The notes below the pieces were generated by a model that saw only the letters and a program-made list of their open reading frames with translations, did not search any database and had not been told where the DNA came from. Shown here piece by piece: positions 3,748-50,800 of a stretch of DNA of 64,000 nt; position 1 is the stretch's first letter, and each line of letters opens with the position of its first letter. Both the position numbers and the translations under genes were made by a program. The stretch lies in NCBI RefSeq assembly GCF_053078305.1, contig NZ_CP166879.1. One strand, written 5' to 3'.

Positions 3748-4811
3748 AACAGGTTTGCGTCCTCGGGAACGGGCAGTTAGGCCGTATGCTGCGTCAGGCA
3801 GGCGAACCGTTAGGCATTGCTGTCTGGCCAGTCGGGCTGGACGCTGAACCGGCGGCGGTGCCTTTTCAACAAAGCGTGATTACCGCTGAGATCGAACGCT
3901 GGCCGGAAACCGCATTAACCCGCGAGCTGGCGCGCCATCCGGCCTTTGTGAACCGCGATGTGTTCCCGATTATTGCTGACCGTCTGACTCAGAAGCAGCT
4001 TTTCGATAAGCTCCACCTGCCGACCGCACCGTGGCAGTTACTTGCCGATCGCAGCGAGTGGCCTGCGGTGTTTGATCGTTTAGGTGAGCTGGCGATTGTT
4101 AAGCGTCGCACTGGTGGCTATGACGGACGCGGTCAATGGCGTTTACGCGCCGATGAAACCGAGCAGTTACCGGCTGAATGCTACGGCGAATGTATTGTCG
4201 AGCAGGGCATAAACTTCTCTGGTGAAGTGTCGCTGGTTGGCGCGCGCGGCTTTGATGGCAGCACCGTGTTTTATCCGCTGACGCATAACCTGCATCAGGA
4301 CGGTATTTTGCGCACCAGCGTCGCTTTCCCGCAGGCCAATGCGCAGCAGCAAGCGCAAGCCGAAGAGATGCTTTCGGCGATTATGCAGGAGCTGGGCTAT
4401 GTAGGCGTGATGGCAATGGAGTGTTTTGTCACCCCGCAAGGTCTGTTGATCAACGAACTGGCACCGCGTGTGCATAACAGCGGTCACTGGACACAAAACG
4501 GTGCCAGCATCAGCCAGTTTGAGCTGCATCTGCGGGCGATTACCGATCTGCCGTTACCGCAACCGATAGTGAATAGTCCGTCGGTGATGATCAATCTGAT
4601 TGGTAGCGATGTGAATTATGACTGGCTGAAACTGCCGCTGGTGCATCTGCACTGGTACGACAAAGAAGTCCGTCCGGGCCGTAAAGTGGGGCATCTGAAT
4701 TTGACCGACAGCGACACATCGCGTCTGTCCGCGACGCTGGAAGCCTTAATCCCGCTGCTGCCGCCGGAGTATGCCAGCGGCGTGATGTGGGCACAGAGTA
4801 AGTTCAGTTAA
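3744..4811 (+). CDS. purK: N5-carboxyaminoimidazole ribonucleotide synthase
   Basis: 355 aa ATP-grasp protein; ATGA start/stop overlap with purE. Confidence 0.96.
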
Positions 4812-4825
4812 CCTGGTGCTCATTT

Positions 4826-4925
4826 GATTGCCGGATGCGGCGTGAACGCCTTATCCGGCCTACACCGATCCGGTACCCATTGTAGGCCTGATAAGACGCG
4901 TCAAGCGTCGCATCAGGCATGGTGC
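4826..4925. repeat. REP/BIME-type palindromic repeats
   Basis: gccggatgcggcgtgaacgccttatccggcctaca and gtaggcctgataagacgcg...cgtcgcatcaggc palindromic units between convergent purK and ybcF. Confidence 0.6.
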
Positions 4926-4949
4926 ACCGATTGCTGGATGCTCTCATCA

Positions 4950-5843
4950 CTACAGCGAAATACAGGTCCCCGCTTCGCCCGCCAGCGTCTCTTCAATTCG
5001 CGATAACGCCCCAATCCACGCGGGTTTACCACGGCTTCTGACATAACCACTCACCGCCGTTACCTTCGGCCCCATCGAACCATCGGCTTTGGCAAATGGC
5101 GCTAACTCATCCGGTGTGGCATGGCGAATGGCACGTTGCTGCGGCGTTCCCCAGTTTTCATATACCGCATCAGCATCGGTGAGGATCACCAGTCCATCTG
5201 CATTAATCTGCTCGGCGAGCAACGCAGCGGCGAGATCTTTATCAATCACCGCTTCACTCCCTGCTCCGTCATCCGTCACAGGCACACCGCCGCCGCCGCT
5301 GCAAATCACCACATGCCCCTCTTTGAGCAACAACTCAATGGCTTCGCTGTCGAGAATTTTACGCGGTTGCGGAGACGCCACCACCCGGCGCAAATATTTA
5401 CCATCACGTTTCATCTGCCAGCCGTAAGCCGCTTCCAGTGCCTCTTGTTCTTCTGGCTGATAAACCGGACCAATAAATTTCTCTGGCTGCAAAAACGCCG
5501 GATCATCAGGCGAAACTTCAATGCGCGTCAGCACCGTCGTGACAGGCGGCATCTGCGGCTGTGCGCTCAAACTCTGCGCCAGCATATAGCCAATCATCCC
5601 CTGACTTTCTGCCACCAGCACATCCAGCGGATACGGTTCTACCTCTTTCCACGCCAGATTCTGCAATGCCAGCAGCCCCACCTGCGGCCCGTTGCCGTGA
5701 ACAATCGCCAGCCGATAAGAACGGGCCAGGCGCGCCAGCGCGGGTACAGCACTGGCGATATTGCGATATTGATTTTCTGCCGTCAGCGCCTCACCGCGCT
5801 GGAGTAAGGCGTTGCCCCCAAGAGCCACAACCAGTGTTTTCAT
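4950..5843 (-). CDS. ybcF: Carbamate kinase-like protein
   Basis: 297 aa amino-acid-kinase fold ([13 protein letters not shown]...); last gene of the fdrA-ylbE-ylbF-ybcF cluster. Confidence 0.92.
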
Positions 5844-6655
5844 GGTTTTCCTTGTAATAATTGTTGGCCAAGCCAGAACCCCAGCAGCGTATCTGCCCCT
5901 GACGTATGCCCCAGCGCCAGCAGCGAATCAATCGCAACAGCGGTACGTTTCGGGCAACTCAGAGCATGAACAAAGTGCAGGAGTGGCGAGGCGAAATATC
6001 CTTGCGCGGCATAACGTAAATAACTGACGCTCACCGCTGTGGTAACGAGTTGAAGATTGTCGGAACAGGCAAAAAACGGGCGACCGGCGCGCGCATCTAA
6101 AGCACCATAATACCAGGCCGCCAGCAGCATTCCGCTCAACGTGTCATCATGACTTGGCGTTAATCCGGGGCCTTTACCCAGCCAGTGCCGCCAGTCGGTC
6201 TTAACGCCATTGAGCGCGGCCTGAAAACAGTGACGAAACTGGCGTAATTCAGCGGGCAGCGGATCGCTTGCCGCCATCGCCAGTGGCCCGAAAAGTCCGG
6301 TTTCCTCCGCGCGTTGCATCCATGCAGCTGCAAGCGGTTGAGGATGCGAAGGCGGCGTAATACGCAGCAAACAATAACGCTGTGGCTGTGTAACCGTGAA
6401 ACGCCCGAGGCGAATCCCTTGAGCCACAACCTGTGGTCGTTCATTGCCGCATAATCCACCGCATAACGCATCGAATTGCGCACGGCGAAGCACCCATCCT
6501 CCGGGGCCGAAACCACTACCCTGACGATGCAGCGTTAACAGTTCGCCGCTTTCCGTCATCAGGTTAATCGCCCGCCGCCACACTCCCGCTAACCGCCAGG
6601 ACTGGCGATAATTCGGTGCGCTACTACTGGCAAGCAGAGGATGGATGATCGTCAT
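5840..6655 (-). CDS. ylbF: DUF2877-type protein YlbF
   Basis: 271 aa from ATG at 6655 ([11 protein letters not shown]...); the track ORF extends to an upstream alternative start that would overlap ylbE. Confidence 0.85.
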
Positions 6656-6665
6656 TGCGCGTTCC

Positions 6666-7925
6666 TCAACCAATCCCCATGCTTTCAGCCAGTGCTTCCA
6701 GCGCCTGTTCAAAACACGCCAGCGGTGCCCGCACGGTGCCTGCGCCAATCTGCCCGATCCCCGCCTCTTTATGGGCAATACCGGTATTGATGAGTGGCGT
6801 AATGCCGGTTTCTACCACGCGACGAATGTCCAGCCCCAGGCACGCGCCCTGAAAATCCCAGCTTGGGATCTGCAACTGCATATTGCGTTCAAGGTAAATT
6901 TCCGCCATCTCTTCAGATACCGCCCTGGCCGCTTCCATGCCACCCGCACCGACAAAGCGCGTTACGCCAGGCGCTGCGATCATTGCCGCACCTCCGATAC
7001 CAAAGGTTTCGGTAATCGCGCTATCGCCCATATCCGGGTTCGCCTGCTCCTGCGAGAAGCCGGTGAAAAACAGACCTTGCGGAGTGTTTACAGGCGCAGT
7101 AAACCAGCGTTCGCCCAGCCCGCTTACCCGAATCCCGAACATATTACCGTTGCGGGTCATTGCCGTGACGATGCTGCCTGCACGGATCATCGCGCCAGCA
7201 TCCATCGCCGCCTTGCAGTAAGCCATCGCGAGGTTGAGGAAGAACTGATCGGTCACGCTGAGGAAATCCATCACTTCCGCGATGTGCTGTTTATCATGAT
7301 CGAGGCGAGCAATTTGTGGGGCCAGCGCACGCATTAACAGTGCTGAGGAAGCAATATTGCGTTGATGGAACTCATCGCCCATCGTAATGCCCTGCGCCAT
7401 CATCGCGGTAAGATCGATACCGCGCTCCATGCGCCCCAGCGCCGCGCTTAATACTGGCATTAACACATCGCGCATCCAGCGATGGCGAGTCAGGACATCT
7501 TCGCCGTAAGCGCCAAAACGCATCACTTTGCCGATACCTTCGTTGAGGTTGCAGTACGCCCGGTTGCCGTCGGTCACGTTCTCGACCACCAGCATCGGCA
7601 TACTGGCAGAAGTAATACCGCCCATTGGCCCGACGGCATTCACATGGTGACAAGGAATGAAGTTCACTTCCCCCTGCTCCAGTATTGCCAGCGCCTGCGC
7701 TTCATCTTTCGCCCAACCTTCGAACAGACATGCGCCCACGCACGCCCCTTTCATGGGTCCGGTCATCTCCTGCCAGCGCATTGGCGGCCCGGCGTGAAGC
7801 AGTGTTTTGCCCGGGTGTAGTTCGCTGATAAGTGAAGAAGCCGGTTGCACATCCAGCCAGTGTGGACGAGCGCGACGAATTTGTTCGATAACCGCAGCAT
7901 TGGCTTGCGCCACTGATGTAAACAT
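6666..7925 (-). CDS. ylbE: DUF1116-family protein YlbE (intact)
   Basis: Uninterrupted 419 aa ORF between fdrA and ylbF. Confidence 0.85.
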
Positions 7926-7934
7926 GGGAACCCC

Positions 7935-9602
7935 TTATTGCAAACGTTCTAATAAACGAGCCAGTTTTTTATTGCCGCCGGCGACTGGCGACCATTGGTA
8001 ATGCACAACCGGTTTGCTGGCGCTTTGTAGCTCCAGCGCAAAACTGCGTAATCCGATGTTAATCACGGCGACGTTTTCCAGTAATGACGGTGTGTGTTGC
8101 TGTGCGGCAGGCGAGAGCGGATGAATTAACGCTGCCGCCAGCAAGGTGGCTTCCGGTAGCGAACTCACGACCGCAATCCCCGCATCTTCCAGCGTGGCGA
8201 TTTGCTGCGAGCGGCATTGCGGGTCACGTTCGGTACCTGTCACCGTGGCAATGGCGTACAGCGGTTGGCTGTCTGAACGCGCGGCACAGGCTTTTTGCCA
8301 GGCGCTCACCAGCGAGGCGGCAGGATCGGCGGTCGCGCCGAAGCCAATCACGACATCAAGTAGCAATACGCGCACTGACAGTTTAGCGCCGAGATCGGCA
8401 ATTAACTGGTTGCGTAAGGTTGGGTCGATCATCGGATGGGGACGCCCGACGGTGTAGAAATCATCGCCAAGGTCAATAATCTGGTGACCATCGGCGTCGA
8501 GCATCATGCCGTGATGATGGGCATCATCGGCTTCCACGCCAAGGTGTCCGGCAAGTAATCCCGCCGCTTCGGCAGCCAGCGTACCGCCGGTATACAAACC
8601 GCAAATAAATCCGCTGCTGACAGGTGCTATTGCGTTACGTCGCGCCGTGACGCGTGAAAGCAGGCAAGCCAGGCGTGCGGCCTCATCCAGCGAGGAGGCA
8701 AACCAGACATTCTCGTCGCGGGCCACCGCCGGGGTATAACCTAAAAACAGCGCCACCGTCGGTTTGCCGGTTGCTTTCATGGCATTAACAATTTTCAGAC
8801 GCACCGCTTCGGCAGGTGGTTTTGAAACAAATGCCAGCACTTCGCTTTTCTCGTCTGCACTGAGCATTTCCAGCGCCGTCAGCGCACTGATGCCGCCCAC
8901 TTCACGGCTGAGGTCGCGGCCGCCAAGGCCAATCGCGTGAGTAATTCCCTCCCCTGCCAGCGCAATCTGCGAGCACAGCTCCTGAATCCCGGTACCGGAA
9001 GCGCCAATGACGCCAATATTGCCTTCCGGCATCACGTTAGCAAAAGCCAGCGGCGTGGCGGCAATCATCGACGTACCGCAGTCCGGCCCCATCACCAGCA
9101 AGCCTTTTTCTCGCGCGCGGGTTTTAAGTTGGATTTCATCTTCCAGCGTGACGTTATCGGAGAACATCATCACGTTGAGGTTGCGATCCAGCGCCTGATT
9201 CGCCAGCTCCGCCGCATACTCGCCAGCCACTGAAATCAGCGCCAGATTGGCATCGGGTAATTTCTGACAGGCACTGTCCCAGCGACGCACCTGCGTCAAG
9301 GACTGGCTGCTGCCTGCCCCCTGCGCCAGTTGTTTTAGCGCCTCTTCAAGCTGCTGCATAATCGCCTGCGCGATCCCCGCATCCGCCGCTTCGCTACGAA
9401 TTGCCACGCAAATATCGTTCGGCGTGGCGTTATTAAAATCGTCATGCCAGAAACCTGTGGTATCTAATAACGCTTTATTGGCGGGCGTACCCATCATTAC
9501 GGAAACATCATCAACATTTTCTGATTCGCTGAGTTTTCGTGAAATAATCATTAAACTGACCGAATCCTGAAAACACCCTTTTTTAATAAAGGCGTGGATC
9601 AT
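7935..9602 (-). CDS. fdrA: FdrA protein (succinyl-CoA synthetase alpha-like / CoA-binding)
   Basis: 555 aa ORF (MIHAFIKKGCFQDSVSLMIISRKL...) at the expected position. Confidence 0.9.
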   Translation of the reverse strand: MIHAFIKKGCFQDSVSLMIISRKLSESENVDDVSVMMGTPANKALLDTTGFWHDDFNNATPNDICVAIRSEAADAGIAQAIMQQLEEALKQLAQGAGSSQSLTQVRRWDSACQKLPDANLALISVAGEYAAELANQALDRNLNVMMFSDNVTLEDEIQLKTRAREKGLLVMGPDCGTSMIAATPLAFANVMPEGNIGVIGASGTGIQELCSQIALAGEGITHAIGLGGRDLSREVGGISALTALEMLSADEKSEVLAFVSKPPAEAVRLKIVNAMKATGKPTVALFLGYTPAVARDENVWFASSLDEAARLACLLSRVTARRNAIAPVSSGFICGLYTGGTLAAEAAGLLAGHLGVEADDAHHHGMMLDADGHQIIDLGDDFYTVGRPHPMIDPTLRNQLIADLGAKLSVRVLLLDVVIGFGATADPAASLVSAWQKACAARSDSQPLYAIATVTGTERDPQCRSQQIATLEDAGIAVVSSLPEATLLAAALIHPLSPAAQQHTPSLLENVAVINIGLRSFALELQSASKPVVHYQWSPVAGGNKKLARLLERLQ

Positions 9603-9840
9603 AACAACTCCTTAAAAATTGCACCCATGGCAATTGCACGAGCAGTGTTAATGTGGCGATTACGGTATCGATGACAACGGGTAAATAAGGTGATGAATAT
9701 CACACAGGGATTATTAACAAAAGAATTCAAATAACCGCCATGCTATTACGTGTTATTTTTTAATAAGCGTGGTTGTTTTAAAAACCAGGTTAAAAGCGAG
9801 CGGATTATCAAATAAATTCTAACTATATTTTTTTGCCTGT

Positions 9841-9858
9841 CTGGATCACATAATCCAG
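9841..9858. promoter_or_regulatory. Palindrome in fdrA-allD divergent promoter region (candidate regulator site)
   Basis: ctggat-cacata-atccag perfect 6-6-6 inverted repeat about 60 bp upstream of allD. Confidence 0.3.
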
Positions 9859-9918
9859 ATATTTTCCCTGTATGTTAATTGCAGTCATGCTTCACACCGT
9901 CGTTAAAAAGGAAGACAG

Positions 9919-10968
9919 ATGAAAATCAGTCGGGAAACACTCCACCAGCTAATTGAGAATAAACTCTGCCAGGCTGGGTTAAAACGTGAGCACGCTGCAA
10001 CCGTGGCTGAAGTATTGGTTTACGCCGATGCCAGAGGGATCCACTCTCATGGCGCGGTGCGCGTGGAATACTACGCGGAACGCATTTCAAAAGGCGGCAC
10101 CAACCGCGAACCGGAGTTTCGTCTTGAGGAAACCGGGCCGTGCTCGGCAATTTTACATGCCGACAATGCCGCCGGACAGGTCGCGGCGAAAATGGGTATG
10201 GAACATGCCATCAAAACCGCCCAGCAAAATGGCGTTGCGGTGGTCGGTATCAGCCGGATGGGTCACAGCGGCGCAATCTCTTATTTTGTGCAGCAGGCAG
10301 CCCGCGCCGGATTAATTGGCATTTCGATGTGTCAGTCCGATCCAATGGTGGTGCCGTTTGGCGGCGCGGAAATTTACTACGGTACTAACCCACTGGCCTT
10401 TGCCGCGCCGGGAGAAGGCGACGAGATCCTTACCTTTGATATGGCGACTACCGTACAGGCATGGGGAAAAGTGCTCGACGCCCGCTCGCGTAATATGTCT
10501 ATCCCGGATACCTGGGCGGTCGATAAAAACGGTGCACCAACAACCGATCCGTTCGCGGTACATGCTCTGCTCCCCGCAGCCGGGCCGAAAGGGTATGGCC
10601 TGATGATGATGATTGACGTCCTCTCAGGCGTCTTACTCGGCTTACCGTTCGGGCGACAGGTTAGTTCGATGTATGACGATTTACACGCCGGGCGTAATTT
10701 GGGGCAATTACATGTAGTTATTAACCCGAACTTTTTCTCCTCCAGCGAATTATTCCGTCAACATCTTAGCCAGACCATGCGCGAATTAAATGCCATTACC
10801 CCCGCGCCCGGTTTTAATCAGGTTTATTATCCCGGACAGGATCAGGATATTAAACAACGCCAAGCCGCCGTCGAAGGCATCGAAATTGTTGATGATATTT
10901 ACCAGTATTTAATTTCCGACGCGCTTTATAACACGTCATACGAAACGAAAAATCCCTTTGCGCAATAA
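9919..10968 (+). CDS. allD: Ureidoglycolate dehydrogenase
   Basis: 349 aa Ldh_2-family oxidoreductase; first gene of allDCE. Confidence 0.95.
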   Translation: MKISRETLHQLIENKLCQAGLKREHAATVAEVLVYADARGIHSHGAVRVEYYAERISKGGTNREPEFRLEETGPCSAILHADNAAGQVAAKMGMEHAIKTAQQNGVAVVGISRMGHSGAISYFVQQAARAGLIGISMCQSDPMVVPFGGAEIYYGTNPLAFAAPGEGDEILTFDMATTVQAWGKVLDARSRNMSIPDTWAVDKNGAPTTDPFAVHALLPAAGPKGYGLMMMIDVLSGVLLGLPFGRQVSSMYDDLHAGRNLGQLHVVINPNFFSSSELFRQHLSQTMRELNAITPAPGFNQVYYPGQDQDIKQRQAAVEGIEIVDDIYQYLISDALYNTSYETKNPFAQ

Positions 10969-10989
10969 TTATTGAGACAGGACTTTCTT

Positions 10990-12225
10990 ATGATTACACA
11001 TTTTCGTCAAGCCATAGAAGAAGCGCTGCCCTGGCTTTCCTCTTTTGGCGCTGACCCAGCGGGTGGGATGACCCGTTTACTTTATTCGCCGGAATGGCTG
11101 GAAACCCAGCAGCAATTTAAAAAAAGAATGGCCGCAAGTGGGCTGGAAACACGTTTCGATGAAGTGGGGAATTTATACGGTCGCCTGAGTGGCACCGAAT
11201 ATCCACAGGAAGTGATTCTGAGCGGTTCGCATATCGATACCGTGGTTAACGGCGGTAACCTCGACGGGCAATTCGGCGCGCTGGCGGCGTGGCTGGCAAT
11301 TGACTGGCTGAAAACTCAATACGGCGCACCGCTGCGTACGGTTGAAGTGGTGGCGATGGCGGAAGAAGAAGGCAGCCGCTTCCCGTATGTTTTCTGGGGC
11401 AGTAAAAATATCTTTGGGCTGGCGAATCCTGACGACGTGCGGAATATCTGTGATGCCAAAGGAAATAGTTTTGTCGATGCGATGAAGGCTTGCGGATTTA
11501 CTCTGCCGGACGCCCCGCTAACTCCGCGTCAGGATATTAAAGCCTTTGTCGAACTGCATATCGAACAGGGCTGTGTTCTGGAAAGTAATGGGCAATCAAT
11601 TGGCGTGGTGAATGCAATTGTCGGGCAACGTCGCTATACGGTGACGCTGAACGGCGAATCAAACCATGCAGGCACCACGCCGATGGGTTATCGTCGTGAT
11701 ACGGTTTACGCTTTCAGTCGCATTTGCCATCAGTCGATCGAAAAAGCGAAAAAGATGGGTGATCCGCTGGTTCTGACCTTTGGGAAAGTAGAGCCGCGCC
11801 CGAATACGGTGAATGTGGTGCCGGGTAAAACCACGTTCACCATTGATTGTCGTCATACCGACGCCGCCGTGCTGCGTGATTTCACCCAACAGTTAGAAAA
11901 CGACATGCGGGCGATTTGCGATGAAATGGACATTGGTATTGATATCGATTTATGGATGGACGAAGAACCCGTGCCGATGAATAAGGACCTGGTCGCCACC
12001 CTGACAGAATTGTGTGAAAGTGAAAAACTGAATTACCGGGTGATGCACAGTGGTGCCGGGCACGACGCGCAAATTTTCGCGCCTCGCGTACCAACCTGCA
12101 TGATTTTTATCCCCAGCATCAACGGGATCAGCCATAACCCGGCGGAACGCACCAATATTACCGACCTTGCCGAAGGGGTCAAAACGTTGGCACTCATGCT
12201 TTATCAACTTGCCTGGCAGAAATAA
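10990..12225 (+). CDS. allC: Allantoate amidohydrolase
   Basis: 411 aa M20-peptidase-family hydrolase from ATG at 10990 (MITHFRQAIEEALP...). Confidence 0.93.
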   Translation: MITHFRQAIEEALPWLSSFGADPAGGMTRLLYSPEWLETQQQFKKRMAASGLETRFDEVGNLYGRLSGTEYPQEVILSGSHIDTVVNGGNLDGQFGALAAWLAIDWLKTQYGAPLRTVEVVAMAEEEGSRFPYVFWGSKNIFGLANPDDVRNICDAKGNSFVDAMKACGFTLPDAPLTPRQDIKAFVELHIEQGCVLESNGQSIGVVNAIVGQRRYTVTLNGESNHAGTTPMGYRRDTVYAFSRICHQSIEKAKKMGDPLVLTFGKVEPRPNTVNVVPGKTTFTIDCRHTDAAVLRDFTQQLENDMRAICDEMDIGIDIDLWMDEEPVPMNKDLVATLTELCESEKLNYRVMHSGAGHDAQIFAPRVPTCMIFIPSINGISHNPAERTNITDLAEGVKTLALMLYQLAWQK

Positions 12226-12235
12226 GGAGTCATAA

Positions 12236-13021
12236 ATGGGATATTTAAATAACGTCACCGGTTACCGCGATGATTTACTGGCTAACCGTGCGATTGTGAA
12301 ACACGGTAATTTCGCACTGTTAACACCAGACGGTCTGGTAAAAAATATTATTCCGGGCTTTGAAAATTGTGACGCGACAATCCTCTCCACGCCAAAGCTG
12401 GGTGCCTCTTTTGTTGATTATCTGGTCACACTGCATCAAAACGGTGGCAACCAACAGGGCTTCGGTGGCGAAGGCATTGAAACGTTCCTGTATGTGATCT
12501 CTGGAAATATCACTGCCAAAGCCGAAGGCAAAACATTTGCCTTAAGCGAAGGTGGCTATCTTTATTGCCCGCCAGGCTCCTTAATGACGTTTGTTAACGC
12601 CCAGGCCAAAGACAGCCAAATCTTTTTATATAAGCGCCGCTATGTTCCGGTAGAAGGCCATGCACCGTGGCTGGTTTTTGGCAATGCCAGCGAACTGGAA
12701 CGCATTCATTATGAAGGCATGGACGATGTTATTCTGCTGGATTTTCTGCCCAAAGAGTTAGGTTTTGATATGAACATGCATATCCTCTCTTTTGCACCAG
12801 GTGCCAGCCACGGTTATATCGAAACACATGTTCAGGAACACGGTGCCTATATTCTTTCCGGTCAGGGGGTTTATAACCTCGACAATAACTGGATCCCGGT
12901 GAAAAAAGGCGATTACATCTTTATGGGCGCTTATTCTTTACAGGCTGGTTATGGCGTAGGGCGTGGTGAAGCGTTCAGCTATATTTACTCGAAAGATTGC
13001 AACCGCGACGTAGAGATTTAA
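12236..13021 (+). CDS. allE: (S)-ureidoglycine aminohydrolase (cupin)
   Basis: 261 aa bicupin protein directly after allC. Confidence 0.92.
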   Translation: MGYLNNVTGYRDDLLANRAIVKHGNFALLTPDGLVKNIIPGFENCDATILSTPKLGASFVDYLVTLHQNGGNQQGFGGEGIETFLYVISGNITAKAEGKTFALSEGGYLYCPPGSLMTFVNAQAKDSQIFLYKRRYVPVEGHAPWLVFGNASELERIHYEGMDDVILLDFLPKELGFDMNMHILSFAPGASHGYIETHVQEHGAYILSGQGVYNLDNNWIPVKKGDYIFMGAYSLQAGYGVGRGEAFSYIYSKDCNRDVEI

Positions 13022-27643: not shown

Positions 27644-30600
27644 CTTGTAAAGCCTTTATCGTTTTTTTATGCTCTGGATTAATATAATCAATACATCTAT
27701 TTGAGCAATCTTGTGTTAATGGACATGTCAACCCATGTTCATTTACAGCCAAGTCTTTTTTATTATCTTCAATCATCTCAGAATGGGATAACTTTACTTT
27801 TCTGCCGTACATACCGAACATATTTAACCCGTAATCTCTAATCTCTTTTTCATAACCCAGCCCTTTCGCCGATCGGCTAACACCAGCGTCATTTAATTTA
27901 GACACTCGACAAAATGCCATACAATGGAAAAATTGATCAGTCCCACCTAAATTTAATCTCTTCATATCATCATAAGTATCAGATAATATATCCCATGCTC
28001 TTTGATGGTTTAGTTGTTCTTTTTTTCGCATTAACGCTACATCTGCAGGACTTAACCCTAATGGATCAATACCATTCACCGGATTCAGCGGATACGCATA
28101 CAGACTCCATCCCCCCGCCAGCCCAATCGGGTCCTGAGTAATATATCGTCCCAGCAACGGATTGTAGTACCGGTTCCGGTTATAATACAGCCCCGACTCC
28201 TCATCATACTGCTGCCCCGGCAGCCGGTACGGCTGGTGCAGGTGATGCGGGTTCTCCTCATTCAGCTGGTTGCCCCATTCATCATACTCCCCGCTCCACG
28301 CCGTATTGCCGTCTTCGCTGATGAGCGCCAGCGGCAGGCCCCGGTGGTCGCAGTGGTAAAGATGAACTTTTCTCGCCGGTGTGTATTCCGGCTCCACCTG
28401 TCTGGCCAGTTGCTCCACCGTCAGCCCGCACTGCGCAAGCCACGCCCGGCTTTCACTGCTCACGCGGTCTGCCCGGATTTCCCCCTCCAGCCTGTCCAGC
28501 AGCCCCACCAGTTCAGCCGGGAACACCACACCGTGGCCGTCTTCGCTCCCTTCCTGCTGCAGCTTCTCCGCCAGGCTGCGGCACTGCGCTTTCTCCCGTT
28601 CACCGTTGTCTGTTTCGATGCGGATGAGCGGCGCGAAGCTCCCCGGCTGGTATACCGTCTGGATACGCGTGGTGTCGGTCTGTACCGTCGTCAGCCGGTC
28701 GCCGTCCCATCCGTACCACGTCACCTCCGGTTTACGCGACAGCGACATCCATCCCGTCAGGTCACGCCCGCGACGCCACACCCGTTTTCCCGTCCGGCGG
28801 CCCAGCGGGTCGTAGAGGTAGCGGCTCTCGACCAGTGGCTCCTCATGCTGTATCCGCGTGTAAAACACCAGCCGGTGCTGGCTGTCGTAGTGGTAGTGGT
28901 GGGTCCGCTCGTCGTCCGTCCGTATCACACCCGTCGGGATGCGGTCCGTCTTCTCCGTCAGCCTGCCGTATTCATCGTAACGGTACAGGTAATGCGCGTC
29001 TTTGGTGATGCGGTTATCCGGCCACGCCGTGAGCGTGCTGTCCGGGTGCAGCTCCGGGTCCGGCAGGCGGTTGCCCGCCGGGTCGGTCGCATACGGGATG
29101 CGGATGTCCAGGTCCGGTGCGAGGGTGCGCACGCTCTCCAGCCTGCCCGTGGCGCTGTAGCCGTATTCCCGCGTCTGCCGGGGGGCGCTGATGCGCACCA
29201 GGTCGCCGTTGTCATTCCACCCGTAGTCACGGTCATATACCAGGCTGTTCAGGTGCTGGCTCTGTAACTGGCCTGCGGGGGTGTATGTGCTGGTCAGTTC
29301 GTATGCGGCATTACTGCCTGCCATGCTGCCGAAGCTGCGCACCGTCTCACGGTGCAGCCTGTCCCGCGTATACTCGACCAGCGGCGTCCCGCCCAGCTTC
29401 ATTCCCGCCAGGTAACCGCTGCCATACGTCAGCCACTCCACCGGCGGCAGGCTGTCCGGCGTGACGCGGTTTGCCAGCCCCTGTTCGTTGTATGCGTGTT
29501 TCGTCTCATGCTGCCACAGCAGTTCCCCCGTCTCCGGGTTCTCCACCGTCTGGCGTTCGCCGGTCAGGCGGCCCTTATCGTCGTAGCCGTAGTGGGCAGC
29601 GACACGGTGGCCTTCACTGAGATGGCTGATGTCTGTCAGCCAGCCGTGGCCGTCATACTGCCACTGCTCTGCCGGTTCACCGTTTACCGTGCGGTGAGTG
29701 ATACGGTCCGATTCATCGTAGTACCAGAGGATGACAAGTCCCTCATCCTCACTCTGTGTGAGTTTTCCGGTCAGGTCATAATGATAACGTTGCGTCCGCC
29801 CGTCAAAGCCGCCCTGCTGTACCAGCCGGTCCAGCGCATCGTAACTGAAGACGCTGTGGCTGCCGTTCTCGTTGGTCAGGCTGATGACACGTCCGGCAGC
29901 ATCGTACTCCATACTGCGCGTCAGCCCGCCCTGCGTGGTGCTGACCGCCTTTCCCCACGCATCGTACTGTGTCTCGCTCCGGTTGCCGTCCGGGGTGATA
30001 ACGGCAGTCAGGTCGCCTGCGGCGTTGTATTCATACCGCGTTTCACGGCCCTGTGCGTCTTTCACCGAGGTTAACCGGCCACGGTTGTCATAGCGGCGGT
30101 AAAGGCTGATGCCTTCCTCGCGGTGGACCGCCGTCATCTGGCCGAAGCGGTCGTATTCATAACGGGTCTGGTAGCCCGAGCAGTCGGTGAACGCCAGCAA
30201 CTGACCGTAGCGGCTCCACGTCATCTGCCGGGTGCTGCCCGTCGCATCTGTTGTTGTGGCCGGTAATTCACTGTGCGCATCATCATAGCGGTAGCGTACT
30301 GTCTCCCCGCTGCGCGATGTCTCCGTTACCAGCCTGTCCAGTTCATCATATGCCCGGCGGCTCTCCAGCCCGTCCGGGGACACCACCGCCGTCAGCTGGT
30401 TCCCGTCGTTATAGTAAAATTTCGTCTCCCGCCCGTCCGGTGTGGTGATGTCCGTGATGTCGCCTGACACCACATTCAGACCGTACTCTGTCCGCCGTCC
30501 CGCCGCGTCCGTCTGCGCCGTGAGCCTTCCTGCCGCGTCATACCCGCTGTGCGTGATGCTGCCGTCCGCCTGTTCCTTCATCACCACCCGTTTCAGCCCG

Positions 30601-44507: not shown

Positions 44508-45679
44508 CGTTCGCGCAACGCCTCCTGTGCTTTGTTAAAGGGTTTCAACAGATAATCCAGCACGCTTTTTTTGCCGGTGCGGATATCGACCGTCGCCACC
44601 ATACCGGGGAATATCGGAAACTGCTGTTTGCTTTTGTTTTCCAGATGGTTGCTGAAAGTGCGAATGTACACCCGATAGTAATAAACATCGCGCCGCACTT
44701 CATCCTGCACGGTGTCTGGTGATATCACCGCTACTTCTCCCGGCAGACCGCCGTAGATGGAGTAATCGTAGGCAGTTATTTTCACCAGCGATTTTTGCCC
44801 CGGATGGATAAACGCCACATCGCGCGGGGAGATTTTTGCCTCAATCAGCAGTTGCTCATCCAGCGGCACGATGGTCATCAGTTTACCACCGGGGGCGATG
44901 ACGCCGCCAACCGTGGTGACGTCAATATCCTGAACAATGCCACGAACTGGCGCAGTAAAGTTGAGCCTGGTGAGGGAGTCTTCACGCCCACGGATCACCG
45001 AACGCTGGGTTTCCACTTCCGCATTGGCTTTCGCTAACTCTTCCCGCGCCTGAACGTAGTATTGCGTGCGCACGTCGCTGAGTTTGTTTTCCAGTTCATT
45101 GGCCTGGCGTTGCAGGCGCAGCACTTCGACGCTGCTCGCCGCCCCCTGTTTCACCAGCGGCTGGGTCATCGCCAGTTCACGGTTGACCAGGCTAATCCCC
45201 TGCGTCAGCCCGGTGGTGGCTTTGTTCAACCCGTCGCGGCGAGTGTTGTACAACGCCGTTTCCGACTCGATAAGTTCGGGGAATTTATTCAGTTCGTCAG
45301 GGAAGACCAACGGTTTATTGCTCACTTCCGCCCGCAGCCGCGCCGAGGTTGCCAGCGCAGCGTACAGCCGCGACATCGCTTCCTGGACGTCGGATTCCGT
45401 TTTAGTGCGGTTAAGCTGCGCCAGCGGCTGGCCCTGTTCGACAATATCGCCAACTTTCACGTTCAGATGATACAGAATTCCGCCTTCCAGCGACTGCACC
45501 ACCTGTTCGCGCCCGGAAGGTTCTACCGTGCCGCTGCCGGTGGTGACTTCATCAAGCTGGAAGTACCACGCCCAGCCGAGAAAACAGAGCAGCATCACAG
45601 CGGTAACGCGTACCGCCAGCGCCGAACGCGGCAAGCGGGGTTCAGTCAGGCCACGGTTGTATTGCAGTTGTCCGTTCAT
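44504..45679 (-). CDS. Type I secretion periplasmic adaptor (HlyD family membrane fusion protein)
   Basis: 391 aa: cytoplasmic N-terminus, one TM helix ([14 protein letters not shown]), long coiled-coil and lipoyl/beta-barrel regions; ATGA-coupled to the upstream ABC gene. Confidence 0.88.
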
Positions 45680-47838
45680 GCAGCAGACCCCTTATTCTTC
45701 TCCTGCAACACCACCCGTCGCGCCGTGGGTTCGCTCTGTTCACGCAAAATGGCCTCTTTCGCGCCATCCATCACAATCCGCCCCTGATCCATCACGATTA
45801 TCCTGTCCACCAGCTGCAGCATCGCCGTGCGGTGAGTGGCGATGACCAGCGTGCGATGTCCAATCCACTGTTTCAGATGTTCGATTAAATGCGCTTCTGC
45901 CATTTCGTCCAGCGAGGCGCTGGGTTCGTCGAGCAGCACGATATTGGGTTGAGAGATGAGTAGCCGCGCCAGCAACAGCGTTTGTCGCTGACCGCCAGAG
46001 AGGCCAAATCCTCCTTCCTGAATCATGTAGTTGAGACCGTTTTTCTGCTTCTGCACAAAGGGCAGCGCCCCGCTGAGGGTTAACGCGCGTTCGATATCTT
46101 CATCGCTGGCCTCCGGCATCCCCATGGTGAGGTTTTCCCGCAGCGAACCAAAGAACAGTCGCCCGGTCTGGCTGAGTAGCCCCATGTCTCGCCGCAGATC
46201 TGCCGGATCAAGCTGCCCGATACTGATGTTATCCAGCAACACCTGCCCCTGCTGGGCGATACGCATTCCAGCGAGCATTTGCAGTAGCGTCGATTTACCC
46301 GCGCCGTTGCGCCCGAGAATGGCGATTTTCTCACCAGCCTGAATGTTGAGTTTGCCAATCGCTACATCGGCAATCTTCTCTTCTTCGTCGTAATAAAACA
46401 CCGCGTTGCTGAACTGATAATTACCGTGCAGCACCGCTTTATGCACCAGTTTGCCGTGTTCCGGCTGATCCACCGGGCGCTTCATCAGTTCATCCAGGCC
46501 GTTACGCGCCACCTTTGCCTGCTGCCAGCGCGAGAGCACGCCGGATATCTGCGACAGCGGCGCGATGGTGCGCGAAGCCAGGATCGTCGTCCCGACCAGC
46601 GCGCCGGTGGTCATGTCGCCGTTCATCACCATAAAGCAGCCCACCAACAGCACCACGACGTAGACGATGGATTGCACTTCCTGGGTCCAGGTGAGCAGTA
46701 GCCCGGTGAGAAAACGTTGCTTCATGCTGATGGACGAGGCCACATCGTTGGTGTGATTCCACTGATTCTGGAAACGCTGTTCGGCGCGCAGCAGTTTAAT
46801 ATCTTCAATCGACTGCACGGCTTCGACAAGCGTAGCGTTACGTACCGCCGACTCGCGCATCCCTTCGTTCGCCAGCCGCGCCAGCGGGCGTTGTACCAGC
46901 AGGCCGGGGATCACCAGCAACGGCAGCGCCAGTAAAACCACCAGCACCAGCCAGCCGCCAATCATCCACAAAATAAAGACAAACAGCAGGAAGAACGGCA
47001 GATCCGCCACCGCGCCGATGGTGGTGGACGTAATAAGCTCCCGCACTGATTCCAGTTCGCGGATCTGCGAGATAAACGATCCGGTGGATTTCGATCGCAC
47101 GTTGTTTTTCAGCCGTAGCGCATGACCAAAAACGCGATCCGAAATACGCAGGTCTGCCCGCTTGCCGATCACATCAGATAGATGCGTACGCACCATGCGC
47201 ATACAGAACTCAAACAGGATCGCCATCATCACCCCGGCGAACAGCACCCACAGAGTCGGGTACGATTGCGCCGGAACCACCCGATCGTAAACCTGCATCG
47301 AGAAAATCATCGCCGCCAGCGCCAGCACGTTCGCCACCAGTGACGCCAGCATAATATCGCCGTAGCGCCGCCAGTCTTTTAGCGAAAGACTCCAGAACCA
47401 GTTCGCCTGATACGGGCGAATATAGTCATCTACCCGCGCGTCAGGGATGGCGCTGAGCGGGCGCAGTAGCGCCAGTTCAACGATTTTATCCTCGACATCC
47501 GCGACGTTAAGCGTGGTTTCCAGCCCTTCGTCACCGCTGAACTGAACGCTGATATTGTCATGATTGTCGCGACGGGTGATCACGCCAATCTGCTGATTAT
47601 CAAACACCGCGATCAGCGGCAGACGCCAGGGGTTAAGCGAATCGGCGGAAAACTCCACCAGCCGTAACCCCATTCCCAACTGCCGCGCCATGTCGGTGAG
47701 CAACTCTTCCCGCTTACTGTCGCGCTCCCAGTTGACGGTCGCGCGCACATTCTCCTGAGAAAAATCGAGCCGATAATAGCGCGCCACGGCGATCATCGCC
47801 TCCAGCCAGGCTTCCACGGACTGGGCATTTTTTTTCAT
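45676..47838 (-). CDS. Type I secretion ABC exporter (HlyB type, N-terminal C39-like domain, TMD and NBD)
   Basis: 720 aa: N-terminal roughly 130 aa C39-like domain with no candidate catalytic Cys, six-helix TMD, Walker A (GRNGAGKST), signature (LSGGQRQ), Walker B (LLDEPSASLD); ATG 3 nt after the adhesin stop. Confidence 0.9.
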   Translation of the reverse strand: MKKNAQSVEAWLEAMIAVARYYRLDFSQENVRATVNWERDSKREELLTDMARQLGMGLRLVEFSADSLNPWRLPLIAVFDNQQIGVITRRDNHDNISVQFSGDEGLETTLNVADVEDKIVELALLRPLSAIPDARVDDYIRPYQANWFWSLSLKDWRRYGDIMLASLVANVLALAAMIFSMQVYDRVVPAQSYPTLWVLFAGVMMAILFEFCMRMVRTHLSDVIGKRADLRISDRVFGHALRLKNNVRSKSTGSFISQIRELESVRELITSTTIGAVADLPFFLLFVFILWMIGGWLVLVVLLALPLLVIPGLLVQRPLARLANEGMRESAVRNATLVEAVQSIEDIKLLRAEQRFQNQWNHTNDVASSISMKQRFLTGLLLTWTQEVQSIVYVVVLLVGCFMVMNGDMTTGALVGTTILASRTIAPLSQISGVLSRWQQAKVARNGLDELMKRPVDQPEHGKLVHKAVLHGNYQFSNAVFYYDEEEKIADVAIGKLNIQAGEKIAILGRNGAGKSTLLQMLAGMRIAQQGQVLLDNISIGQLDPADLRRDMGLLSQTGRLFFGSLRENLTMGMPEASDEDIERALTLSGALPFVQKQKNGLNYMIQEGGFGLSGGQRQTLLLARLLISQPNIVLLDEPSASLDEMAEAHLIEHLKQWIGHRTLVIATHRTAMLQLVDRIIVMDQGRIVMDGAKEAILREQSEPTARRVVLQEKNKGSAA

Positions 47839-47841
47839 TAT

Positions 47842-50800
47842 CTACACCACCATCAACTGATGATTCGCCAGCAAAGTGGCGAGGTCGGTGTGCACGCCCG
47901 TCAGCGTGACCACGTTAGTTGTCGCAAAAGTGCCGCCCGTGCCGTCGCGGTCGATCTGCACGATGGTGTCGCTGCCGCTCTGGGTGACTTTGACAAAGTC
48001 ACCGATGTTTCCGGCCTGCGCATCCAGCGTCGCCACGCCGTTGACATAGCTGGCTTTGCCGTTTCCGGTGTAGCCGCTGCCCTGCAACAACTCGCGGATA
48101 TCAATGCGATCGGTGTCGGCAGTGCCTTCCCAGGTGCCTACCGTAAAGCCATTCACCACATCCGAACCGTTGCCGCCAGTGGCGTCGCTGGCGTTGAGCA
48201 GTTTATAGAGCAAGGTGTCGTGGCCGCCGTTGCCGATGTTGAGCGTGTCGTTGCCGCCGCGCCCTTCCAGTTGGTTATCGCCGCTGCTGCCGGTCAGAGT
48301 GTCGTTAAAATTCGAGCCGGAAATACCTTCGATATTGGTAAATGTCGAGGTGTTAAAGCCGGTGGCCTGCGCGGCAGTGCTGCTTAAGTTCGCGGTCACG
48401 CCCACCGTCGAAAGCCGGAAATCAACCACGTCCATCCCGCCGTTCGCCAGCCACGTTCCGGTGCCGGAGCTGTACACCCAGCCGCCGGAACCGTCGTAAG
48501 TGTCGGTGCCTGCGGTGGCAAAGAAGGTGTCGTTATAGCCCGTACCAACGAACTTGCCGTTGTTGCTCGCGGTGCCCGCTTCAGCGCTGAGATCGTAAGC
48601 GTGAGTGGCATCGGTAGCCTGCAAACCACCCCAGCTGGTGTTGACCGTCTGGTCGATATTGCTGGCGGTGGTGCCGGTGGATTTGATCAGCACCGCGTTG
48701 TAGGTTTCTCCGGCATTCAGCCCGTAGAAGTTGACCAGCGCCGAGGTGTCGTTAACCCCCATACCCGACTGCGGGTTGATGATTTGCGTGGCGACCAGCA
48801 CTCCCGCCGAGTTGTACAGCTTCACGGTATTGCCGTAATAGACGTTAATGCCGTTGGGATCGGTGATGCGCAGGTGTAGCGAAGTGCCGTAGCTCACCGT
48901 GTTGGTGTTGCGGATCAGGAACACGCTGCCCGACTGTTTGGTCACCAGTACATCAACCGCGCCGTCCCAGTCGTAATCCATTGCCGCCACGCCGCTGGTG
49001 GTACCGCTCTGGCTGCCGCCGAGGGCCGATTGCGTCCAGTTGCTGGCACCACCAACGTTGGTGTAAAGATACGATTGTCCGGTCTGGGCGATACGGGCGA
49101 TATCCATCAGGCCGTCATGGTTCCAGTCCACCGCCAGGCTAAACTGGCTGGCGTAGGTGGTTGCCGTTGCGCCCACCGCCACCGGGCTACCCAGTACGCC
49201 GTTGGTGTTGAATAACAGCGAGCCGTAGTTAGCTCTTCCCTGGCTGGCGGGCAGGAAGAGATCCATATCGCCGTCACCATCGAAATCGGCCCAGGTCATG
49301 GAAACGCTGCTGCTCATAGCGCCACTGCCCGCCCCGCTCAAGAAGGTATTGGTGGTGTTCTGCCCCCAGACAAACGTCCCATTCCCCTGGTTGATGAGCG
49401 AAGATAGCGTGTAATAGTTGTTCAGGTTGTAGGTGTGCTGAACCAGGTCGATCCTGCCGTCATTGTTCAGATCGACGCCAGAACCTTCGTTGAGCGAAAG
49501 ATACCCCGTCACCGCCCCGCCCACCGTGGCGCTACCGCCGCTGTTCGACGTGGTGGAGTTACCTACCAGCGTACCTGCGTTGTTCCACAGGAAGGTGTTG
49601 GAGTCCGGCCCGCCCGCGTCGCCAATCCAGAAGTCGAGATAGCCGTCGCCCTCTTTATCAAATGCCACAATCGAGCCGTACCACGTCAGGGTGCCGACGG
49701 TGACCTGAATAGCGCTGGAAAAGGTGCCGTCGCCGTTATTGGTAAAGCCGTTGATATAGCCTGTACCGTAGTCATCACGGGTGATAAACAGATCGCCCGT
49801 GCCGTTACGGTCGTAATCGGCGATGGAGCTGGTGGCGTAGTTGTTGCCGCTCTGATACAGCGTCAGCGCGGTCTTCGACCAGGTGAGTGGGTCAGTCGAT
49901 TGCATTACCTGCTGGTTTGCCAGCACCGTCCACATCCCGTGCGAGTCGAGGCCGTAGGTCAGCCCCCAGGCGGTGGTTTTGCTGGCGGTAGTCCAGGTCG
50001 GTGTGTAATCAATCGCCGCGTTAACCGTCACCGTGCCGTTGCTAATATTGGCGTTATTGCCGTTACCCGCCGAACTTTTTACCTGCGCAGTAACGGTATA
50101 GGCGGTCGCGGAAACTGTCAGCGCATCGGTATCCGGCAACTGTACATACCAGGTGTTGTGCGCCGGATCGACCACTACCGCGCCGCCCGGTTCAGAGGTG
50201 TAGGTTTTGCCGTTGATCACCACTTCAACATACTGCCCACTGGCAAGCGCGGCGGTGATCACCCCGCTGATAATCGGCGTAGTATCGCGCGTGGTCTGGC
50301 TGGTGATTTGCGCCAGCGTGGTCGGAATAGAGGTATCGACCGTCAGGACAAAATCACTGGAGGAGGTGATATTCCCCGCCAAATCCACCACTCGCGCGCT
50401 GTAGGTATAGGCACCGCTCACCAGCCCGCTGTCGCTGTAGGTCCAGTTCAGAGCGCCGACCATCGTCACCGCCCCTAACAGCAGCCCGTTACGGTAGAGG
50501 TAAACCACTTCACCGCTGGCAAGCGGCGCGGAAAGTACACCGTTCAGCAGCGGCGTAGTGTCGTCGGTGGCCTGCGAACTGCTTAATGTCCCCTGCCGCT
50601 GCCCGACATCATCGGTATACGACACAATGGTTGGCGTGGCGGTAGGGTTAATCGTATCGACCACCACCGTTTTCGATACCACCGGGCCGGTGTTCCCCGC
50701 CAGATCCAGCACCCGCACCTGATAAACGTAGCTGCCGTCGGTCAGCGTGCGGCTATCGGTGTAAGTCCACTGCGTGCCGTTGGTGGTAAGCGTGATCCAG

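Follow-up and report, generated by a model that had tools for sequence, protein, structure and literature searches.

Whether an intact ylbE gene beside the allantoin genes distinguishes this strain from Escherichia coli K-12, where the gene has been recorded as split by a frameshift, is the question raised by this locus. The window, which is the whole stretch of 64,000 nucleotides that was analysed, carries ylbE as part of a compact four-gene cluster, fdrA-ylbE-ylbF-ybcF. This region is almost certainly an ordinary E. coli allFGHK operon, which encodes the oxamate branch, comprising the two final steps in allantoin degradation under anaerobiosis. Because ylbE is intact in K-12 as well, its integrity here does not set the strain apart from K-12.

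Organization and identity of the four genes

The four genes were arranged in the order F-G-H-K with operon-like spacing and diverged from allDCE (Table 1). A gap of 9 nt separated the fdrA stop from the ylbE ATG, the ylbF ATG followed the ylbE stop after 10 nt, and ylbF and ybcF overlapped by 4 nt (ATGA), confirming the tight packing beside the allantoin genes described in the initial annotation. The range given there for the cluster, 5840-9602, was accurate for fdrA, ylbE and ylbF but left ybcF outside. The ylbF start was placed at the ATG at 6655, giving 271 aa, and not at the upstream TTG (6778) of the mechanical ORF list. In the ORF listing of the window, ylbE appeared as an ATG-initiated frame without any internal stop, as had been noted before; the chance of a random stretch of this length staying open is ~(61/64)^419, or roughly 2e-9. 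The whole allantoin regulon within the window was intact and colinear with that of K-12, including an intact allD-allC-allE with 97.2-99.0% nucleotide identity.

Table 1 Features of the allFGHK region (positions in the window)
Feature	Position	Strand	Description
fdrA / allF	7935..9602	-	555 aa; large oxamic transcarbamylase subunit; built of succinyl-CoA synthetase alpha-like modules
ylbE / allG	6666..7925	-	419 aa, intact; oxamic transcarbamylase subunit (formerly DUF1116)
ylbF / allH	5840..6655	-	271 aa; small oxamic transcarbamylase subunit (formerly DUF2877)
ybcF / allK	4950..5843	-	297 aa; catabolic carbamate kinase; part of the operon
Divergent allD-allF intergenic region	9603..9918	.	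allF promoter and AllS-/ArcA-binding fragments
allD-allC-allE	9919..13021	+	upstream pathway steps, including ureidoglycolate dehydrogenase
GGGGG run	7670..7674	-	ylbE nt 252-256; GGGG in legacy K-12 records
ylbE codons 37-38	7812..7817	-	CAC CCG (His-Pro) here; AAC GAG (Asn-Glu) in K-12

All four products matched their expected families. FdrA aligned with NCBIfam NF004760 'FdrA' over positions 1-555 of 555 (1039 bits, cut-off 433), matched the Pfam CoA_binding and Ligase_CoA domains, and had a close structural counterpart in PDB 3DMY (E 1.9e-301); its RefSeq product name is 'acyl-CoA synthetase FdrA'. YlbE scored 326.7 bits against Pfam PF06545 'AllG' (cut-off 27), was identical to UniProt ALLG_ECOLI at 417/419 aa, and had a homologue of solved structure in PDB 3CLQ (E 2e-111). 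YlbF matched Pfam PF11392 'AllH' with 101.5 bits (cut-off 25), and a structure database search returned no solved structural homologue of YlbF/AllH. YbcF reached 620.9 bits against the equivalog model NCBIfam NF006926 (cut-off 416) and matched carbamate kinase structures such as 8CRV (E 1.6e-89). The dN/dS values of 0.03-0.13 across all four genes indicated purifying selection.

Gene order, spacing, lengths and neighbours were all identical to those of the allFGHK operon of K-12 MG1655 (b0518, b4572, b0520, b0521). The four-gene block measured 4653 nt in both genomes and differed by 79 substitutions (98.3% identity), with no indels across the four genes. At the protein level, identity to K-12 was 545/555 for FdrA, 417/419 for YlbE, 267/271 for YlbF and 296/297 for YbcF, so that point substitutions alone separate the two operons (10 in FdrA, four in YlbF, one in YbcF, and 10 nucleotide changes in the promoter region). 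N37H/E38P were the sole amino-acid differences of YlbE; a YlbE identical to that of the window was encoded by 236 contigs, and at least 1000 encoded the K-12 form.

Function of AllFGH and AllK

Experiments in K-12 have established AllF-AllG-AllH as oxamic transcarbamylase (OXTCase), with the carbamate kinase AllK encoded downstream (PMC9843812, 2022; PMC11326118, 2024), which bears out the carbamoyl-phosphate-yielding catabolism ending in the carbamate kinase YbcF that the initial annotation had put forward. The K-12 operon was assigned to oxamic transcarbamylase and a catabolic carbamate kinase by Kim & Kim (2022, 2024, 2025). Purified AllFGH cloned from MG1655 exhibited OXTCase activity, three different subunits were required, and oxamate production was lost in each of the MG1655 delta-allF, delta-allG and delta-allH mutants. 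Wild-type MG1655 converted approximately 90% of allantoin into oxamate, and this conversion was abolished by delta-allG; complementation of delta-allG with the single gene failed in the K-12 work. YbcF was an active carbamate kinase, and co-transcription of all four genes was detected by RT-PCR. With protein identities of 98-99.7%, the enzyme activities, the need for three subunits, the co-transcription and the regulation probably carry over from K-12 to the operon in the window.

Oxalurate, the product of ureidoglycolate dehydrogenase, is the substrate of AllFGH. In the pathway expected here, ureidoglycolate would be oxidized to oxalurate by AllD, after which AllF-AllG-AllH (EC 2.1.3.5) would convert oxalurate and Pi into oxamate and carbamoyl phosphate. 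AllK would pass the phosphate of carbamoyl phosphate to ADP, giving ATP and carbamate, and the carbamate would decompose to NH3 and CO2. All four genes would be transcribed as a unit starting in the allD-allF intergenic region, turned on by AllS in response to allantoin and by ArcA under anaerobiosis. The oxamate branch is ATP- and NH3-yielding.

Variation in the promoter region

In K-12, the operon is activated by AllS and ArcA with support from EMSA, for which fragments spanning -203/-144 (AllS) and -142/-83 (ArcA) were used (PMC12535856). The allD-allF intergenic region had the same length of 316 nt in the window and in K-12 and contained 10 substitutions, all located between -195 and -78 from the allF ATG. 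Nine of the 10 fell within the EMSA fragments, six in that of AllS and three in that of ArcA, whose precise binding motifs are predictions. We calculate a probability of ~0.001 that all 10 would lie by chance inside a span of 118 nt out of the 316 nt. Such clustering could suggest that this lineage has intact genes but a differently regulated or silent operon, owing to divergence of the AllS/ArcA-binding region from K-12. Against this, the promoter allele of the window (at least 99% identity) occurred in 1982 of the 5338 complete genomes, indicating a common and long-standing haplotype, and the strong purifying selection on the coding genes speaks for their expression and use. The AllS and ArcA motifs are, moreover, predictions, and altered or lost regulation appears very improbable. 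Since nine of the substitutions lie inside the EMSA fragments, quantitative differences in expression are possible within an otherwise ordinary allFGHK operon. A scan of 4780-9960 yielded two promoter-like and three terminator-like sites, no more than in shuffled sequences; none of the terminator-like sites was downstream of ybcF, in a scan that performed no better than the shuffles.

A further idea is that the lineage-specific haplotype as a whole, comprising the 10 promoter substitutions, AllG N37H/E38P and the 10 AllF changes, might tune the flow of ureidoglycolate between the oxamate and glyoxylate branches. We regard this as very unlikely; if true, natural E. coli alleles would differ in anaerobic purine-nitrogen salvage. 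The haplotype is a common one, and the purifying selection on its genes is of the ordinary kind.

Origin of the K-12 ylbE frameshift

In the current MG1655 sequence, NC_000913.3, ylbE is an intact CDS (b4572, 1260 nt, 419 aa, YP_009029994.1). The initial annotation had taken K-12 ylbE to be split and had itself named an intact K-12 gene as refuting this; the claim is abandoned here. It had also proposed an alignment that would place the K-12 frameshift. No indel was found relative to current MG1655; the legacy sequences lack one G of a G5 run. Both the window and NC_000913.3 carry GGGGG at ylbE nt 252-256. The legacy K-12 'ylbE pseudogene' (ylbE_1/ylbE_2 in older MG1655 releases; W3110 record NC_007779.1, in which ylbE is flagged 'frameshifted') represents the same locus with otherwise the same sequence, except that the legacy records contain GGGG at nt 252-256 and A at nt 114. 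When the 4-G allele was reconstructed, the frame ran into LEQGK* and stopped after codon 86.

The distribution of the two alleles was determined with paired 94/95-nt queries over 5417 complete E. coli genomes. The 4-G allele was present in only 4/5417 records, namely the 2006 W3110 record NC_007779.1 and three records with the allele at identical legacy coordinates; these three are probably reference-guided assemblies. The exact 5-G stretch was found in 1272 records, other K-12 derivatives included, and was carried by resequenced MG1655, C600, J53, ME8067 and ER1709. Published resequencing contradicts the split state. An extra G relative to the legacy sequence was reported in MG1655 and W3110 laboratory stocks (PMC4404585, PMC5979011, PMC5460176, PMC3045373), as an insertion at ylbE nt 253 (PMC4404585) and, in resequencing of K-12 laboratory stocks, as +G at 547,831, with breseq tables mirroring the older MG1655 releases that annotate ylbE as frameshifted (PMC5460176, PMC5979011). 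The CanOE study had already stated in 2012 that no other E. coli had the frameshift, which was probably a sequencing error (PMC3364942).

A reading in which ylbE is truly a pseudogene in K-12, so that the oxamate branch is complete here and incomplete there, draws on the annotation that persists in the W3110 RefSeq record and was likewise present in the older MG1655 releases. It is extremely improbable: it is refuted by the intact 419-aa gene in NC_000913.3, the GGGGG run in other K-12 derivative genomes and the allG-dependent formation of oxamate by MG1655 described above, and the additional G in W3110 and MG1655 laboratory stocks also speaks against it. The 'K-12 frameshift' reflects one G left out of old reference sequences, an error since put right in MG1655; essentially all E. 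coli, K-12 included, have an intact ylbE, and this is why the gene is intact here. The possibility that the G5 run acts as a hot spot for slippage or as a phase switch was rejected, as essentially no independent genome had G4.

Relationship of FdrA to CoA ligases and transcarbamylases

FdrA shares its CoA_binding and Ligase_CoA domains with SucD and the ADP-forming acyl-CoA synthetase superfamily. In one pairwise BLASTP alignment, residues 118-290 of FdrA aligned with residues 66-238 of SucD (E 2e-9, 22% identity), and the alignment stopped 8-9 residues short of the SucD catalytic His. No GHAGA-like or phosphohistidine-loop motif followed the aligned part of FdrA, as judged from its sequence and not from the 3DMY structure; the activity-raising FdrA substitution D296Y falls in the stretch just after it. 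FdrA thus differs from SucD in having no detectable counterpart of the phosphohistidine loop, and BLASTP gave no significant match between FdrA and SucC. Chemistry in the succinyl-CoA synthetase alpha family proceeds via acyl phosphates. From this kinship, we think that phosphorolysis to carbamoyl phosphate may take place on the FdrA scaffold without a phosphohistidine.

The same domains, together with the RefSeq name, would fit an acyl-CoA synthetase, or the oxamate:CoA ligase proposed in CanOE 2012 (PMC3364942), accompanied by accessory proteins without an assigned function, a reading that persists in many genome annotations, but FdrA reached only 53.8 bits against the succinate-CoA ligase equivalog cut-off of 336 and the complex purified with all three proteins acts as a transcarbamylase, making this reading most improbable.

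The reaction of AllFGH is a transcarbamylation, in contrast to the CoA ligation of the succinyl-CoA synthetase family. ATCase PyrB, OTCase ArgI/ArgF and YgeW belong to the same reaction class, namely carbamoyl transfer to or from carbamoyl phosphate. However, these classical transcarbamylases exhibit no sequence similarity to AllFGH, which needs three different subunits. OTCase/ATCase Pfam domains were absent from FdrA at the default threshold and from YlbE and YlbF at E up to 10; at this permissive level, YlbE and YlbF matched only AllG and AllH, with no concealed transcarbamylase or CoA-ligase domain. The same reaction was first described biochemically for the oxamic transcarbamylase of Streptococcus allantoicus, as this work is cited in PMC3364942 (Bojanowski et al. 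1964). That activity was never tied to genes; for the reaction, this was achieved with E. coli in 2024.

Implications

The finding is already known and nothing is unusual at this locus. The allFGHK operon has been textbook-level since 2022-2024, and transcarbamylase catalysis by three subunits unrelated to ATCase/OTCase is an E. coli-wide matter to which the window adds nothing special. The analysis serves mainly to set the record straight: the 'split ylbE of K-12' survives from the older MG1655 sequence and from the W3110 record, and it should be taken neither as a strain difference nor as a sign that K-12 is without the oxamate branch.

The fdrA-ylbE-ylbF-ybcF cluster is intact and conserved in E. 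coli

The window is E. coli sequence, and its ORF listing contained four closely packed genes, all on the minus strand: fdrA, ylbE, ylbF and ybcF (now allF, allG, allH and allK). The start of ylbF was taken as the ATG at 6655; the mechanical ORF list runs on to an upstream TTG at 6778. The genes are separated by 9 nt (fdrA-ylbE) and 10 nt (ylbE-ylbF), while ylbF and ybcF overlap by 4 nt (ATGA). The allD-allC-allE genes (9919-13021) are divergent from the cluster across a 316-nt intergenic region. The range 5840-9602, assigned to all four genes in the initial annotation, holds fdrA, ylbE and ylbF, but ybcF lies outside it. The description of ylbE as one continuous ORF was borne out, and no internal stops were found in any of the four genes.

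Coordinates of the four clustered genes in the window
Gene	Position	Strand	Product
fdrA	7935-9602	-	555 aa
ylbE	6666-7925	-	419 aa
ylbF	5840-6655	-	271 aa, ATG start
ybcF	4950-5843	-	297 aa

A 3763-nt stretch of the cluster had matches in 5421 of 5426 complete genomes, with at least 95% identity for all but two and the best match in XH990 (99.9%); fdrA, ylbE, ylbF and ybcF were annotated genes under all full-length matches listed. The four-gene block measured 4653 nt in both the window and K-12; the two versions were 98.3% identical, differing by 79 substitutions without any indel. FdrA, YlbF and YbcF differed from K-12 by 10, 4 and 1 amino acids, respectively. YlbE differed at residues 37-38 alone, where His-Pro replaces the Asn-Glu of K-12 through three substitutions within five bases (AACGAG to CACCCG, window 7812-7817); this form is a minority allele, found in 236 contigs, whereas the K-12 form was found in at least 1000. 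The change also gives rise to a CCCGGG site, and the third base of codon 38 is nt 114, the site of a silent difference in legacy references. The dN/dS values against K-12 (fdrA 0.13, ylbE 0.075, ylbF 0.13, ybcF 0.03) reflect ordinary purifying selection. The rest of the allantoin regulon, allS through allD, was likewise intact and colinear with K-12.

The ylbE frameshift belongs to outdated K-12 sequence records

The initial annotation had set the intact ylbE of the window against a frameshift-split K-12 gene. In the current MG1655 reference, NC_000913.3, ylbE (b4572) is a normal 1260-nt CDS encoding YP_009029994.1, and GGGGG occupies nt 252-256 of the gene both there and in the window (7670-7674). 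Resequencing of K-12 stocks against older references has revealed two shared ylbE differences, a silent A to G at nt 114 and an extra G at nt 253, genome coordinate 547,831 (MG1655 derivatives, PMC4404585, PMC5460176; laboratory W3110, PMC5979011; PMC3045373); in NCM3722 the change "restored an intact ancestral gene" (PMC3045373). When the legacy allele was reconstructed by deleting one G, the reading frame ended in ...LEQGK, with a stop after codon 86.

Both alleles were counted in complete E. coli records using a 94-nt GGGG query and a 95-nt GGGGG query. Of 5417 records, just four contained a perfect match to the former: W3110 (NC_007779.1) and strains CIT, LIM and CAR, each at the legacy position 547,787-8. 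The remaining records fell below 99% identity, owing to a one-base gap in those listed, and included the K-12 derivatives resequenced MG1655, C600, J53, ME8067 and ER1709. The GGGGG query gave at least 99% identity in 1272 records. NC_007779.1 lists ylbE as a pseudogene of 1259 nt with the flag "frameshifted". Since CIT, LIM and CAR share the exact coordinate of the old reference, their allele suggests a reference-guided consensus rather than independent evidence; the four-G form persists in the public complete-genome records NC_007779.1 and NZ_CP026026-CP026028 (CIT, LIM and CAR). The split ylbE is therefore accurate for the legacy annotation, but the frameshift is absent from K-12 cells and from the current reference, and the alleged contrast is an artefact of outdated sequence. 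An intact K-12 ylbE is also the very outcome that the initial annotation had named as refuting its claim.

The allD-allF promoter region and other regions of the window

The allD-allF intergenic region (9603-9918) was equal in length to that of K-12 and carried 10 substitutions, all confined to positions -195 to -78 relative to the allF ATG. The published AllS EMSA fragment contains six of them and the ArcA EMSA fragment three (PMC12535856), with the remaining one at -78; the flanks of 121 nt beside allD and 77 nt beside allF are invariant. Such clustering is unlikely to have arisen by chance. Because the allele occurred at 99% identity or more in 1982 of 5338 genomes, it is a common haplotype and no peculiarity of the window strain.

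Nothing in the K-12 488-556 kb region corresponds to window segments 40696-44099 and 44604-64000, which have the look of an island that has inserted between ybbJ and cueR. XH990 was annotated there with the K-12 gene order, cueR following ybbJ directly and no inserted genes. In its best E. coli matches, the annotated products of the island were a giant SiiEA/BapA-related Ig-like adhesin, a type I secretion ATPase/permease, an HlyD adaptor and a YadA-like protein. Of 5426 complete genomes, 638 carried 80% or more of the island, at identities no higher than 95-96%. The K-12 alignment also broke and overlapped in the rhs region (about 28090-28301), and about 1 kb of the K-12 rhsD C-terminal tip/ybbC region (526,997-527,982) lacked a colinear match in the window. 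Rhs tips are normally variable, and the break fits that variability. In XH990 the annotation of the rhs region lists another RHS core protein, with a hypothetical gene downstream of it.

The 90%-identity protein cluster of YlbE (15,957 members; representative, a 555-aa FdrA) also contained full-length FdrA, presumably because fused or mis-called fdrA-ylbE gene models link the two. This mixture is a database artefact that calls for caution over cluster sizes.

The cluster encodes oxamic transcarbamylase and carbamate kinase

Family models assigned all four proteins without ambiguity: FdrA to NF004760 (1039 bits, cut-off 433), YlbE to PF06545 "Oxamate carbamoyltransferase subunit AllG" (326.7 bits), YlbF to PF11392 "AllH" (101.5 bits) and YbcF to the carbamate kinase equivalog NF006926 (620.9 bits, cut-off 416). 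In K-12 MG1655 the four genes are co-transcribed and YbcF is the catabolic carbamate kinase (PMC9843812). Purified AllF-AllG-AllH from the same strain interconverts oxamate plus carbamoyl phosphate and oxalurate plus Pi, and both the pathway steps and the need for three subunits were shown experimentally: single deletion of allF, allG or allH ends oxamate formation from allantoin (residual 1.2 mM in the allH mutant versus 17.7 mM in wild type), which only allFGH jointly restores in full (PMC11326118). Allantoin induces the operon under anaerobic conditions via AllS and ArcA (PMC12535856).

FdrA residues 118-290 aligned with residues 66-238 of E. coli SucD, the succinyl-CoA synthetase (SCS) alpha subunit (22% identity, E 2e-9); FdrA showed no similarity to SucC. 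The shared alignment ended 8-9 residues short of the SucD catalytic histidine. Unlike SucD, FdrA had no GHAGA-like motif past this point, reading PAVARDENVWF instead. This stretch includes D296, which is retained in the window and whose substitution D296Y raises oxamate production (PMC8550087). With modest confidence, the complex would generate carbamoyl phosphate through phosphorolysis on a scaffold resembling SCS alpha, with no phosphohistidine involved. Solved structures cover FdrA residues 82-555 (3DMY) and a YlbE homologue (3CLQ); none was found for YlbF.

The role in carbamoyl phosphate-yielding catabolism suggested in the initial annotation was correct and is no longer speculative, being previously established by published K-12 biochemistry (PMC9843812, PMC11326118), and protein identities of 98-99.7% to K-12 argue for the same function in the window strain. 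The cluster is an ordinary, conserved and previously characterised operon.
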